Source: a virus
Strand: one strand, 5' to 3'
Virus record (IMG/VR): IMGVR_UViG_3300045740_000123
Location: 1 to 64,000 of that record
DNA length: 64,000 nt
Shown here: positions 12,326 through 16,707 of the stretch, piece after piece
How the letters are laid out: every line of letters begins with the position of its first letter
How positions within the stretch are numbered: position 1 is the stretch's first letter
Notes under the pieces: model-generated
The model's input: only the letters and a program-made list of their open reading frames with translations
What the model was told of the DNA's origin: nothing
Databases searched by the model: none
Made by a program: the position numbers and the translations under genes

Positions 12326-13132
12326 TCAGCTGACGACGCGGTTGTTCAGATATGCATCGATATCTTCGTAACCAGGTGCGTCATCAGGTTGGATGTAGCA
12401 CACTTCAACCACGATGTAACCCTTGAGGCCTGCGCTCTGATCAGCGCTGGCGAGGTACACACCACCAGACACGCCGGTAGCGGTGTTGGTACCACGGGCG
12501 AACACCTTGAAGGTGGTAGCGCCGGTGATCTCCTTATACAGACCGGAAGGACCAACGCCGGTGGCGCCAGTGGCGGTCAGGAAAGGAGTGGTGCTCAGGG
12601 CCTGGGAACCAGCAGCGAAGAAGATCTTCGTAGCAGCGTCACCAGAGACGGTGGAGGTGAGGTTGGCCTGTGCGATAGGCTCGCCCACACCGGTCACGGC
12701 CACAGGGCCACTGTCGTTGCGGCAGAAGGTCACCACGTTGCCGGTAGCAGCGTAGATACCAGTAGCAGCACGGTTGTCACCCCAGCCAGAAGCCACAGAC
12801 ATCGCAGCGCGATAGATGTAAGCAGGCTGAGTGGCGCTACCAGAGATCACCATGCCGGTGATGTCGGGGCGGGTGTCGTCCTGGCGGTAAGGCGAAGGAA
12901 CGATCACGTCCATGGTTTGGCCATAGGTGGCGGCATCACCGGAAGCCCAGGTGATGGGCACATAACCACGCTGCTGGAAATAACGCCAGCCAGGAACGGC
13001 CAACACAGAAGTGGGGCCAGCCTTGGAAGCATTGTTGGTACCGTCATCGTTGGTATCGATGTTCTTGTACCAGCCGTTCAGAGCATTAGTCCAGTTACCT
13101 GGATAGATCTTTTTAGACGAAAGATAGGACAT
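12326..13132 (-). CDS. abundant virion protein (decoration or tail-tube-like)
   Basis: Directly after MCP, same high-expression codon bias, GGAG RBS. Confidence 0.55.
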   Translation of the reverse strand: MSYLSSKKIYPGNWTNALNGWYKNIDTNDDGTNNASKAGPTSVLAVPGWRYFQQRGYVPITWASGDAATYGQTMDVIVPSPYRQDDTRPDITGMVISGSATQPAYIYRAAMSVASGWGDNRAATGIYAATGNVVTFCRNDSGPVAVTGVGEPIAQANLTSTVSGDAATKIFFAAGSQALSTTPFLTATGATGVGPSGLYKEITGATTFKVFARGTNTATGVSGGVYLASADQSAGLKGYIVVEVCYIQPDDAPGYEDIDAYLNNRVVS

Positions 13133-13167
13133 TTATTTCTCCGTTTTATTTACAGATGATTTAATTA

Positions 13168-14325
13168 TCAGATGCTGCCGTCATCAGACACGAAGCTGTA
13201 AGCAGTGGTCACGAAGTCCTTGTTCAGGATCTCGAAGCCGGCGTACAGTTGCCAGATCAGGATGATGAAGCGGCTGAAGTCGTCGTTGTTGTTGATGAGC
13301 ACCTGGGCGTTAGGACCACCGATACCCACACCGATCGACTGAGGACCGAAGAAGTAACCTTGGGCAACTTCTTGGTTGGAGAAGGTGTTTGCACCGTCGC
13401 TGGCGAAGGTAGCAGACACAGTCTTGCTTGGGAAGTTGGTCGACTCGAAGAACTTCACGCCTTCGAACTGAACACCAGTCGGCATCACAGGCTCACCAGC
13501 CAGGAAGTAGCCCTGACCAGCTTGGGGACCCATGTAGAAGCTGGAGTTGTTAGGCATCATGGGGTTACCCATGTACATGCCTTGACCAGGATTGCCGCTG
13601 TAACGAGCGATCTCACGGAAGTCAGGATCACGACGCAGGTGCATCATGAAGGTGGGATCGCAGATGCAACGATACAGACCATCAGCGAAGGTAGGAACGT
13701 TGCGCTTACGCAGGTCCTTAACAACGGTCAGCAGGTCGGTACGCACCTGGAACTGCTGCACATCAGCGGTGTACTCAGCAGCGGTGTAGGAGATGGAGCC
13801 GTTAGCAGCTTTGTTCTTACCACCGGGGAAGTAGTAACCACCCTGGGTGCTGGAGGCTTCACCATTGGCTTCGGCTTTGGCGAGTTCATCAATGAACACG
13901 CGGTCACGCCAACGGCGGTAGTCGTCCAGCAGGGTCAGGCTACCGATGGACTGGTGGAACATGTTGAGGTTCCCGGTGTCCAGCAGCAGACGCTGAGCAG
14001 TGATCAGAGTCTCGCGAGCAATCTTGAAGGTGCTGGGCTGGGTCGGATCACCCGGGTCTGCAGGACCGGTGTATTCCTTAAGCACCACCAGGACTTTCTC
14101 CTTGGTGATGTTACGGCTGTTAGCGGTACCGATGGTCTGATCGGCAATACGCTCACGGCTGTCCTTCGTACCAGGGGTACCCCAGAACTTGTAGCGGTCT
14201 AACTGAACAGTCTGACCAGGCTGGCGAGTGAAGTCATGAACGACCACAGGCTCGACGGCCATTTCTGCGATATACGCAGGGTGGGGACGGTAAAGTTCCG
14301 CACCCAAGATTTTTGGAAAATCGTT
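13168..14325 (-). CDS. major capsid protein, exon 2
   Basis: Strongest codon bias, follows portal and scaffold; DFTRQPGQTVQL and DDFSRF..LIW..YAGF resemble phage MCP termini; begins NDFPKILGAEL with no ATG, in-frame stop just upstream. Confidence 0.8.
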   Translation of the reverse strand, partial: NDFPKILGAELYRPHPAYIAEMAVEPVVVHDFTRQPGQTVQLDRYKFWGTPGTKDSRERIADQTIGTANSRNITKEKVLVVLKEYTGPADPGDPTQPSTFKIARETLITAQRLLLDTGNLNMFHQSIGSLTLLDDYRRWRDRVFIDELAKAEANGEASSTQGGYYFPGGKNKAANGSISYTAAEYTADVQQFQVRTDLLTVVKDLRKRNVPTFADGLYRCICDPTFMMHLRRDPDFREIARYSGNPGQGMYMGNPMMPNNSSFYMGPQAGQGYFLAGEPVMPTGVQFEGVKFFESTNFPSKTVSATFASDGANTFSNQEVAQGYFFGPQSIGVGIGGPNAQVLINNNDDFSRFIILIWQLYAGFEILNKDFVTTAYSFVSDDGSI

Positions 14326-15149
14326 CTCCTGGTCTCTAGTTTCTTAGAGGGGTGGACTATCTCTTCATCCCTGAGGGATGCCGGACGCTAAATCTGGTAT
14401 TACGTAACAAGAACGTGTTACCCCCAGTAGTCTCTGCACCTTCCAATCACGCTTGATTGGCTTGGCTCAGGATTACCCTCGTCTTTACGTTAGGGCTTCC
14501 CTGAATTCATCCGGTTTGCACTCATCGATTGCTCGGTGAGGTGACAACGTTGAGCGTTCAGTTGAGGCATGTTAAGCTTTGGAAACTTGTTTATAAACAA
14601 TATGAATCCAAAACTTGTTCCTGGATTTGGTAATCTTTACTTAACGGAAGAAGGAAAGGCTTTCGAAAAACAGCTTGATCCCGACAATCAAGAATATTTT
14701 CGAGAGATTCCCATCAGATCAACCAGTGTTTATGACCGTATTTCAGTTCTTGTAGATGGAAAACGAAAAAGATTTCATCTTCACGTCTTGATGGCGGTTG
14801 CCTTTTTAGGATTAGATCTGCGTTCTCATGGAACCAGTAACTTTTCCTTACAGGTTGATCACAAAGATAACAACAAGAAAAACAATCGAGTTGAAAATCT
14901 AGAGATCGTTACCAAACAAGAGAATTTAACAAGAGCTTGGAAAAACGGTTGTTACGAAAACAATGGTTTTGCCAGTAAAGGGAAACCGAAAAAATCTTTG
15001 AGAAAGTTTTCTTCGGTCGATGTGGAGCAGATTAAGGCTTTAAAAGAAGCTGGTCTCTCTTATAGAAAGATTGCTGAAAAGTTTAACTGCAACCACGGAG
15101 CTATTTACCAAATCCTAAAAGGATATACCTACCAGGATCTGAACTAGCT
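14326..15149 (-). mobile_element. group I intron in major capsid gene
   Basis: P GAATTCAGGGAA, Q GGTAATCCTGAGCC, R GGTGCAGAGACTA, S GAAGAGATAGTCC in order; 5' splice after U, terminal G; IGS CGTTGTCA (14542-14549) pairs the junction TGAT|AACG with G.U at the splice site. Confidence 0.92.
14602..15147 (+). CDS. intron-encoded HNH homing endonuclease, antisense to intron (alternative start 14569)
   Basis: LHVLMAVAFLG...QVDHKDNNKKNNRVENLEIVT..EN plus C-terminal HTH. Confidence 0.9.
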   Translation: MNPKLVPGFGNLYLTEEGKAFEKQLDPDNQEYFREIPIRSTSVYDRISVLVDGKRKRFHLHVLMAVAFLGLDLRSHGTSNFSLQVDHKDNNKKNNRVENLEIVTKQENLTRAWKNGCYENNGFASKGKPKKSLRKFSSVDVEQIKALKEAGLSYRKIAEKFNCNHGAIYQILKGYTYQDLN

Positions 15150-15161
15150 ATCAATGAACAC
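15150..15161 (-). CDS. major capsid protein, exon 1 (MFID)
   Basis: GGAGG RBS then GTG TTC ATT GAT; joins exon 2 in frame. Confidence 0.85.
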
Positions 15162-15259: not shown

Positions 15260-15778
15260 TCACATGTACTGCATAGTTGGCACGCCCATACGAGCCATCT
15301 CGGTATTATTCGAGCTGTAGCTCTCAGGATCGATACCAGCCTGGAACCCTGGGATACCGATGGCACCAGCCAGACTTCCGGCGGCTAAACCACCGAGACC
15401 AGCGGCGCCTGCTGCAAGGGGAACACCAGCGATGGCTGCAGTCTCCCTGCTGACACCACGGTTGATTACATCAGCAATCGGACCCATGGCACCACGTACT
15501 GCAGCAGCGCGTTTGCTACCAGCAGGAACGTTTTGGCCAATGGCACCAAGACCTTCGATGGCCTGAGAAGCAAGTGCAGCACGGGCTGCGCCTGCATGTT
15601 TACCAGCAAGGCGTGCGGCACCAAGAGCACCACGAGCACCAAGGCCTGCAGCGACACCACCAAGCAGAGCACTACCTGGATCTTCGCCCTGTGCGGCAAG
15701 AGCCCCGCCAGCTACCAGACCGGCAGCGGCGGGGACTCCATATGCGAGCAGAGGACGGGTTTGTCCTAACGGTCGCAT
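15260..15778 (-). CDS. Gly/Ala-rich putative virion/membrane protein
   Basis: ORF 15260..15847; internal ATG (MRPLGQ) just after scaffold stop is the likelier start. Confidence 0.55.
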   Translation of the reverse strand: MRPLGQTRPLLAYGVPAAAGLVAGGALAAQGEDPGSALLGGVAAGLGARGALGAARLAGKHAGAARAALASQAIEGLGAIGQNVPAGSKRAAAVRGAMGPIADVINRGVSRETAAIAGVPLAAGAAGLGGLAAGSLAGAIGIPGFQAGIDPESYSSNNTEMARMGVPTMQYM

Positions 15779-15783
15779 GTGCC

Positions 15784-16707
15784 TCACTCCATCACGAAGA
15801 GTTTGTTGGACACAACGTTGGGCTGAGCCTGGTTCAGAACGCGCCATGCATTCTGGGGATCACGCGCCATGATGTCGTTGAAGGTGCCCCAGAAGTTTTG
15901 AGGCTGCTGAGGAGCTGCGGCAGCAGGGGGAGCGGGGAACTCACCATAAGCATATGGATCCACTTCTTCAGTGGGATAACCATACTGCTCAAGATCTGCT
16001 TCGCCTTCGTGAACAGGGTATGGACCTTCGGGACCAAAGAACCGAAGGGTGTAATCGCTGAGAACATCAGGGTTGGTCAGAATCTCGTTATAAGCAAGAT
16101 TCTCGGTATGAGACTGAACAGCAAATTCAGCGTAACCCTGAAGGGTTTCGGTCATCTCGGTACCCCAAGCCACGGCACTGTCAAGCAGTGCTTCGAGCTG
16201 GAGGGCGTAATTATTTAGAATTGCGGGAGCTTCGCTTCCGAACGCTTCGAGTACTTGCAGGCTTTCCTGACTGATCCCCTCCGAGGAGGTTGGGGAAGAG
16301 CTGGGCGAGTAGGCCTGGTTGGTTGACCAGGTCTGCGGAACCGATTGTTGCGTAGCTTGGCTGCTGCTCAGTCCGTAATTGGCCGGGGTATAGCTCGTCG
16401 GAGCTGACGGTTGAGCCTGGAACGGGGATTGAACTGGAGCGCTCAGCAGGTTCACTACTTTGTTGAACGCCGATTCCCATGGGTTGCTGCTCGGTGCTTC
16501 CGGTTGGGATTGGGGGGCGTACTGAGTAGGGGCTGAGGGTTGGTAAACCGGGGCCGCCTGAGGTGCTGCCACCTGGTAATTCGCCGGGGCTGCTTGGTAC
16601 GAGACCGGGGCTTGGCTCGGCTGGTAAGACGGAGTCACGTAGCTGCTCGGCGCTACTGCCGGAGTCGGGCTCGTCTGTGGGATCGATTGGACGGTAGCGT
16701 CCTGCAT
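15784..16707 (-). CDS. putative capsid scaffolding protein
   Basis: AGGAG RBS; P/Q/S/A-rich N-terminus, helical C-terminus; between portal and MCP. Confidence 0.6.
   Translation of the reverse strand: MQDATVQSIPQTSPTPAVAPSSYVTPSYQPSQAPVSYQAAPANYQVAAPQAAPVYQPSAPTQYAPQSQPEAPSSNPWESAFNKVVNLLSAPVQSPFQAQPSAPTSYTPANYGLSSSQATQQSVPQTWSTNQAYSPSSSPTSSEGISQESLQVLEAFGSEAPAILNNYALQLEALLDSAVAWGTEMTETLQGYAEFAVQSHTENLAYNEILTNPDVLSDYTLRFFGPEGPYPVHEGEADLEQYGYPTEEVDPYAYGEFPAPPAAAAPQQPQNFWGTFNDIMARDPQNAWRVLNQAQPNVVSNKLFVME

Follow-up and report, generated by a model that had tools for sequence, protein, structure and literature searches.

A probable mobile group I intron with an opposite-strand HNH gene, four codons into the major capsid gene of freshwater cyanophages

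How is a capsid protein made from a gene whose first four codons are separated from the remainder by an 824-nt insert that holds a gene on the other strand? The question is raised by one stretch of viral DNA, here called the window (64,000 nt, positions 1 to 64,000 of IMG/VR record IMGVR_UViG_3300045740_000123). The genome is a complete IMG/VR virus record of 85,144 bp with terminal repeats, and its nearest named phage is Synechococcus phage S-EIVl (KJ410740.1). A sequence-only reading of the window had proposed that the insert is a group I intron and that the gene within it, an HNH gene, fills the P1 loop. Both proposals have been followed up through in silico comparison with related phages, structural models of the RNA and public RNA data.

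The interrupted gene is a major capsid gene of the HK97 type, and the phage an S-EIV1-like cyanophage. The product of exon 2 falls into phrog_1357 “major head protein” (6.5e-17), and the AlphaFold model of the protein (pLDDT 76) retrieves phage capsid proteins, including those of T7, N4 and HK97, at Foldseek E-values of 4e-13 to 3e-8; the best matches belong to the cyanophages P-SCSP1u (E 4e-13) and Pan3 (3e-12), followed by T7, N4 and HK97. Upstream of the capsid gene lie the gene of a 748-aa virion structural protein (phrog_20475, 18457-16211) of portal size, which we read as the portal, and two smaller head-module genes; a place behind portal and scaffold-like genes fits a major capsid gene.

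At least 598 relatives of the capsid protein were found in IMG/VR. Among the best 80 of these, which were compared, 59 are intronless, 13 possess a full insert of 824-827 nt, six are cut by a contig end inside the insert, and two carry an ORF-less intron of 276 nt at the same site. S-EIVl and the 59 intronless IMG/VR relatives form a set of 60, and all of them lack exactly the positions 15149-14326 with the reading frame intact, the junction being GTG-TTY-ATT/CTT-GAT-AAC/ACC-GAY-TTY-CC. The insertion after codon 4, with the limits proposed earlier, is thereby established, and because these limits are set by intronless relatives they are independent of any folding argument. In the DNA the insert could also be placed one base further along, the first base of the intron and the first base of exon 2 both being A. 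Group I introns have a U before the 5' splice site and a G at the intron end, and only the placement 15149-14326 provides both. The capsid ORF of S-EIVl is uninterrupted; it starts with GTG, reads MFIDTDFPKILGAELYRPHP and is preceded by the leader GGAGGATAA, as in the window. The coordinates of all features are collected in Table 1.

Table 1. Position, strand and basis of the features of the interrupted capsid gene, its intron and the HNH gene in the window.
Feature	Position	Strand	Basis
GGAGG Shine-Dalgarno of the capsid gene	15176-15172	-	direct read
Exon 1, coding part, GTG TTC ATT GAT (M F I D)	15161-15150	-	direct read and relatives
Group I intron, 824 nt, terminal G 14326	15149-14326	-	RF00028 and absence from relatives
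P1 5' strand, exon UGAU and intron AGC; 5' splice site after U15150	15153-15147	-	
In-frame TAG ending translation of unspliced RNA after MFIDS	15146-15144	-	direct read
P1 extension, 5' strand, GUUCAG	15144-15139	-	also the last HNH codons
HNH homing-endonuclease gene, 181 aa and stop	14602-15147	+	HNH_3, conserved start
Candidate HNH promoter: TTGAGC, 17-nt spacer, TG-n-TAAGCT	14550-14555 and 14570-14578	+	conservation; putative
P1 extension, 3' strand, CUGAAC	14561-14556	-	pairs with GUUCAG
Internal guide sequence CGUUGUCA	14549-14542	-	P1 3' strand 14548-14542, P10 strand 14549-14546
Ribozyme core, overall	14540-14326	-	RF00028 and covariation
P2	14540-14521	-	hand-drawn on core alignment
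P3	14514-14508 with 14387-14381	-	hand-drawn on core alignment
P4	14504-14499 with 14472-14467	-	hand-drawn on core alignment
P5	14495-14476	-	hand-drawn on core alignment
P6/P6a	14465-14439	-	hand-drawn on core alignment
P7	14432-14428 with 14359-14355	-	hand-drawn on core alignment
Extra hairpin, P7 to P3'	14427-14394	-	hand-drawn on core alignment
P8	14379-14367	-	hand-drawn on core alignment
P9	14349-14334	-	hand-drawn on core alignment
Exon 2 of the major capsid gene, stop codon included	14325-13168	-	phrog_1357, fold, homologues

The elements from which the sequence-only reading had assembled the beginning of the gene, GGAGG, GTG TTC ATT GAT and AAC GAT TTT CCA, were all found where it had placed them; AAC GAT TTT CCA opens exon 2 at 14325, and the frame stays open to 13168. 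On the minus strand GGAGG precedes GTG by about seven bases, and GGAGGATA stands ahead of the start codon in S-EIVl and all 60 intronless loci. The start codon is GTG in 60/60 intronless relatives and ATG in a second clade. Every intron-bearing locus retains the Shine-Dalgarno sequence, the start codon and all four exon-1 codons.

A program-made list of open reading frames begins the capsid frame at TTG 14307, a start that the earlier reading had thought probably wrong. Reading through the junction, the 60 intronless relatives begin with M-F-I/L-D-N/T-D-F-P-K-I-L-G-A-E-L, an N-terminus of the expected MFIDNDFPK type, and in codons 2-10 the variation is almost only synonymous (F, I/L, D, N/T, D, F, P, K and I are kept). 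Codon 11, the TTG in question, is TTG in only 18 of the 60, and CTT, CTG, CTC, CTA or TTA in the others; it is TTA in the intron-bearing locus L013 and CTT in L075. More distant homologues (30-47% identity) also have some ten N-terminal residues before this leucine, with a D-x-D-F/V-P motif, and in distant full-length homologues residue 11 aligns with residue 1 of the TTG-started ORF. No Shine-Dalgarno sequence is present upstream of TTG 14307 on the minus strand. Since codon 11 is mostly not TTG and is preceded by about ten conserved residues, TTG 14307 is an ordinary leucine codon, and its call as a start an artefact of the interruption. The same comparison indicates that the capsid protein needs the four-codon exon, and thus exon joining, for its conserved N-terminus, as had been supposed.

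The identity of the insert is given by its RNA. Rfam model RF00028 matches 14574-14333 on the minus strand over its whole length (model positions 1-253 of 253) with 97.2 bits, at a gathering score of 50 and an E-value of 1e-25, which bears out the earlier assignment to group I; no further match to this model was found in the 85-kb genome. Helices P2-P9 were drawn by hand on a core alignment of 17 sequences, in which the 61 core pairs are paired in 99.5% of cells and the terminal G14326 is invariant. Compensatory double changes occur at seven of the core pairs, in P2, P6 and the extra hairpin; seven is reached in 0/500 shuffles, and structures slid by 1-3 columns give at most two. Three of the compensatory pairs belong to the extra hairpin between P7 and P3' (14427-14394). 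In introns of subgroup IA, such as that of the td gene of phage T4, the extra helices P7.1/P7.2 are located between P7 and P3'. The hairpin lies at this place, and the intron may be termed “IA-like”. Among the loci the core is about 96% identical, as against dS values of 0.4-1.2 in the HNH genes of the same loci, and the ribozyme is under selection. The centroid fold of the ORF-less intron recovers P2, P3-P6, the extra hairpin, P8, P9 and the L1 hairpin, while its minimum-free-energy fold has z = -1.6, a method uninformative for a pseudoknotted ribozyme.

Similar core sequences are found elsewhere. Over 60-200 nt the core is 70-94% identical in DNA to stretches, either unannotated or within genes, of a wide range of unrelated phages, among them Klebsiella and Escherichia jumbo phages, terminase-like genes of Vibrio phages, the terminase of DSS3_VP1, DNA polymerases of Bacillus and Ralstonia phages, and Staphylococcus phages; most of these stretches are without an intron annotation.

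The pairing that would define the 5' splice site spans the HNH gene. P1 consists of UGAU|AGC paired with GUUGUCA (14548-14542), with U15150.G14545 at the splice site, and P10 consists of the exon-2 bases AACG (14325-14322) paired with CGUU of the guide (14549-14546); the earlier claim that the guide pairs across the junction with a U.G at the splice site is borne out by both. P1 is complete (7/7 pairs) in 40/40 loci scored, from both clades, and exon position -4 forms U-A with the guide in 16 of these loci and C-G in 24. The distance from the 5' splice site to the guide is 600 nt, as the sequence-only reading had noted, with the opposite-strand HNH gene between them and covariation across the gap. 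Next to P1, a 6-bp extension helix closes a loop of about 575 nt. It is fully paired in four script-scored variants (GUUCAG/CUGAAC, AUUCAG/CUGAAU, ACUCAG/CUGAGU and GCUCAG/CUGAGC); a fifth, GCUCCAC/GUGGAGC in locus L106, was read by eye, the script having mis-assigned the helix and guide of that locus. These covarying strands lie 580 nt apart and one of them also encodes the end of the HNH protein; they are the strongest available support for a giant L1. The earlier placement of the HNH gene in the P1 loop holds in so far as the gene lies between the 5' splice site and the guide; the loop itself belongs to the P1 extension and not directly to the 7-bp P1. In the second clade (L083-L106) the intron is found at the same codon, behind ATG TTT ATC GAT, and an opposite-strand HNH gene, 59-66% identical to that of the window, together with an RF00028 core is present in 10/10 loci scanned.

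The 5' splice site is 12 nt from the capsid start codon and, with the P1 5' strand, falls within about 15 nt of it (15150-15161, 15144-15153). By our reasoning the 5' splice site would be hidden beneath a ribosome that starts on unspliced RNA, which could hinder formation of P1, and splicing and initiation on one RNA molecule should be mutually exclusive.

The HNH gene is the only real plus-strand gene within a 30-kb block of minus-strand genes. Its open frame reaches back to ATG 14569 (ORF 14569-15147); ATG 14602 is conserved as a start and ATG 14569 is not, and the latter was rejected. The TAG stop (15145-15147) lies on the opposite strand 2 nt inside the intron, just where the earlier reading had put it. 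It is part of a CTAG palindrome (15147-15144) that serves as the HNH stop on the plus strand and as the in-frame TAG on the minus strand; TAG or TAA is found at the latter position (15146-15144) in all HNH-bearing loci, and in the ORF-less allele an in-frame stop comes four codons further on. The product contains an HNH_3 domain (PF13392, 7.6e-10, 38.7 bits against a cut-off of 24.8 bits) and a C-terminal helix-turn-helix, and matches phrog_59 at 1.9e-27. The only solved structure matched is I-HmuI (PDB 1U3E, 5e-6), in an alignment that spans DHKD-N-N...N. The frame is intact in 13/13 full-length loci with a median dN/dS of 0.10 (dS up to 1.2), which marks it as evidently under purifying selection. 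The gene is encoded in the group I intron and co-inherited with it, in a patchy distribution among close relatives. One HNH relative from the second clade (P0084) bears the source name “DNA-dependent RNA polymerase auxiliary subunit epsilon”, which looks like a mis-annotation in view of its HNH_3 domain and intron context.

RNA data were available as Logan contigs from four metatranscriptome runs, each covering a small share of the stretch. A contig from one riverine run skips exactly 824 nt. In one freshwater run loose ends equal to the joined form occur, the exons are covered much more deeply than the intron, and the ORF-less variant is present. The other two runs gave unspliced contigs. Intronless relatives, whose DNA has the same joined form, are common in such waters, and for this reason joined RNA contigs cannot be credited to splicing and were counted neither way.

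On the comparative evidence, it is highly probable that the insert is a mobile IA-like group I intron after capsid codon 4 with an antisense I-HmuI-like HNH gene in L1. We infer splicing, expression of the HNH gene, the target of its product and homing as parts of one sequence of events. The late capsid transcript would be made from the minus strand; in it four bases at the end of exon 1 and three at the beginning of the intron would form P1 with the guide, which lies 600 nt further downstream, U.G marking the splice site, while the 6-bp extension helix would close the loop of roughly 575 nt beside it. After the first splicing step the guide would re-pair with AACG of exon 2 as P10, and joining of the exons would yield a capsid protein beginning MFIDNDFPKILGAEL. 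The HNH gene would presumably be transcribed from its own plus-strand promoter, and its product would presumably nick or cut intronless capsid alleles during co-infection, whereupon repair would copy the intron in (homing). A group I ribozyme can, on this evidence, tolerate a P1 loop of about 575 nt with a short covarying closing helix and a gene on the other strand.

Mobility is reflected in the distribution of the alleles. Three forms coexist, scattered over the capsid tree: intronless, with the 276-nt ORF-less intron, and with the HNH-bearing intron. In an exon-2 tree that leaves out the first 30 nt, the distribution of the intron takes 14 changes, of which well-supported branches force at least 11, and near-identical exons occur with different intron states (L004/L005, L071/L077-078). 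The 276-nt introns belong to two different capsid lineages, which would also suit a history in which splicing takes place but the HNH gene arrived afterwards, as a separable invader that entered L1 of an ancestral 276-nt ORF-less intron backwards; the enzyme would then promote its own spread or phage-phage competition, and not classical intron homing. Such an origin agrees with the low GC content of the HNH region (0.36-0.39, flanks 0.55-0.60), an island in its surroundings, with a hairpin at the end of the ORF-less loop that resembles the palindrome just before the HNH start, and with the intron endonuclease of phage PhiPA3, which according to PMC11620839 acts in phage competition. However, the first 20 nt of the ORF-less intron are still readable as the HNH C-terminus (Y-Q-D-L-N) with a mutated stop, which looks like the remnant of a deletion, and both deep clades contain the HNH-bearing form, whereas the ORF-less form was seen only in that of the window. 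A late invasion is for these reasons rather unlikely, although it deserves to be kept in mind. The retained stretch makes us lean towards the ORF-less intron as a deletion product, which would fit the usual cycle of gain, decay and loss. Hundreds of environmental genomes, among which all three alleles are found side by side, make up a natural homing system and a data set for the gain, decay and loss of homing elements.

The sequence-only reading had suggested that convergent HNH transcription could modulate splicing, a speculative part of it that has a conserved promoter-like motif ahead of the HNH start in its favour. The backward orientation of the HNH gene could accordingly be understood as a regulatory device, in which early transcription of this gene yields RNA antisense to L1 and the P1 extension and also to exon 1, and this RNA blocks splicing or translation of the capsid message until late transcription outruns it. 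TGnTAnnnT may represent an extended -10 promoter of the HNH gene: TAnnnT is kept in 19/20 sequences from two clades and has TGn ahead of it in 17, and the adjoining bases vary (counted by eye). The TTGAGC-like hexamer upstream sits on the complement of the guide region, so that the candidate promoter overlaps the guide complement. A scan for consensus sigma-70 promoters found none for the HNH gene at its threshold, below which the TGnTAAGCT candidate falls. The HNH stop overlaps the P1 extension, no terminator is present between this stop and exon 1, and the arrangement is shared by two clades at only about 60% identity of their HNH proteins. Nevertheless, inheritance explains the conserved orientation equally well, and intronless and ORF-less phages do well without a backward HNH gene; we regard a regulatory role as improbable. 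Its fuller form, in which early HNH transcription restrains capsid splicing and translation and the intron acts as a switch that times production of the most abundant virion protein, is a still more doubtful one; there the HNH transcript would be antisense to L1 and the P1 extension as well as to the 5' splice site and the start codon of the capsid gene.

An unspliced insertion, i.e. a free-standing HNH cassette with a dead ribozyme, the capsid protein starting at TTG 14307 minus ten residues, would account for the open frame of the ORF finder and for RNA contigs that give no direct observation of splicing, but it is hardly credible against a ribozyme about 96% conserved with compensatory changes while HNH synonymous sites are close to saturated, a Shine-Dalgarno sequence, start codon and exon 1 kept in every intron-bearing locus, a codon 11 that is no start codon in most relatives (L013 and L075 included), and the missing Shine-Dalgarno sequence before 14307.

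The closest known counterpart of the probable intron described here interrupts the major capsid gene of mycobacteriophage LittleE; it is about 820 nt long, and its bottom strand has an endonuclease frame (Pope et al. 2013, PMC3706429). RT-PCR and N-terminal sequencing demonstrated that it is spliced. Its type was given as “most likely group I” with the ORF unplaced in the RNA structure, and the frame is given as HNH in a figure legend and as LAGLIDADG-like in the text; an ORF-less relative of this intron sits elsewhere in sister phages (PMC3706429). A capsid-gene intron of lactococcal phage Tuc2009 is cited in the same source (PMC3706429). LittleE and the window share an intron of about 820 nt in a capsid gene, a U before the 5' splice site, a G at the end and a reverse-strand endonuclease. 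In contrast to LittleE, the ribozyme, P1, P10 and the ORF-holding loop are here defined by covariation and splicing is deduced, while for LittleE the reverse is true; the lineage and host, those of freshwater S-EIV1-like cyanophages, and the position after codon 4 differ as well.

An antisense homing-endonuclease gene with its own promoter is also known from I-DirII in a group I intron of Didymium iridis rDNA (PMC3073962, citing Johansen et al. 2006). It shares with the window the antisense gene within a group I intron; as far as that source describes it, it differs in its eukaryotic nuclear rDNA location, His-Cys box enzyme, Pol II promoter, spliceosomal intron and polyadenylation. I-HmuI of phage SPO1 and I-PfoP3I resemble the enzyme of the window as HNH proteins with a C-terminal helix-turn-helix encoded in phage group I introns, but their host genes are DNA polymerase genes and not a capsid gene. 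Both enzymes are encoded on the strand of the host gene, and the loops that contain their genes are peripheral ones but not L1. I-PfoP3I, from the DNA polymerase intron of cyanophage Pf-WMP3, nicks one strand near the insertion site (PMC3428280), and the same is stated of I-HmuI (Landthaler et al. 2004, as cited in PMC3706429). The psbA introns of cyanophages S-PM2 and S-CBWM1 are likewise group I introns in cyanophages, and the core of the window shows 72% DNA identity to the S-CBWM1 intron over about 110 nt. These psbA introns are not known to carry an ORF; F-CphI is encoded by a free-standing neighbouring gene downstream (Zeng et al. 2009, as cited in PMC3428280).

No description of this intron, or of an intron in any S-EIV1-like phage, was found in the literature covered, which is incomplete and leaves absence unproven. 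Group I introns with an endonuclease gene on the reverse strand have been published before, one of them from a phage capsid gene, and hence no new category is opened. What is new is the lineage, the position four codons in, the gene mapped inside the P1 extension with overlapping signals on two strands, and the population of three alleles.

There are consequences for annotation. A widespread lineage of freshwater cyanophages has its capsid gene misannotated, in the window genome through truncation at TTG 14307, and gene callers will fail on intron-bearing genomes unless the four-codon exon is recognised. In the GenBank entry of S-EIVl (KJ410740.1 60784-62010 = L001:3011-4237) the capsid gene (L001:3086-4237, plus strand) is unannotated; two frames named “hypothetical protein” are given instead, one on the opposite strand (AHV82227.1) and a short one on the plus strand covering only the 3' end (AHV82228.1). 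In the window, plus-strand ORFs at 12389-13159, 13249-14202 and 15574-16218 lie opposite the capsid gene and its neighbours. These long frames appear to be shadow frames of GC-rich minus-strand genes and not genes, and the S-EIVl annotation seems to have called one such frame.

The 98-nt spacer 5' of the capsid gene contains, on the minus strand, a promoter-like GTGACT-18-TAAAAT with TG (15263-15234), then a hairpin at about 15226-15203, followed by TTTCACCCGAT (spacer region 15263-15196). The hairpin is kept in S-EIVl with compensating changes, and the TTTCACC(C/T)GA tail in nearly all relatives; this leader may combine a late promoter with a signal by which the capsid mRNA is processed or attenuated. 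In locus L106 two group I cores are found in one capsid gene (L106:1877-3037, minus strand of the locus): the first intron lies at codon 4 and carries the backward HNH gene, and the second, ORF-less, is located about 31 codons further on, between HDF and TKQPGQ, leaving an exon of about 93 nt between them.
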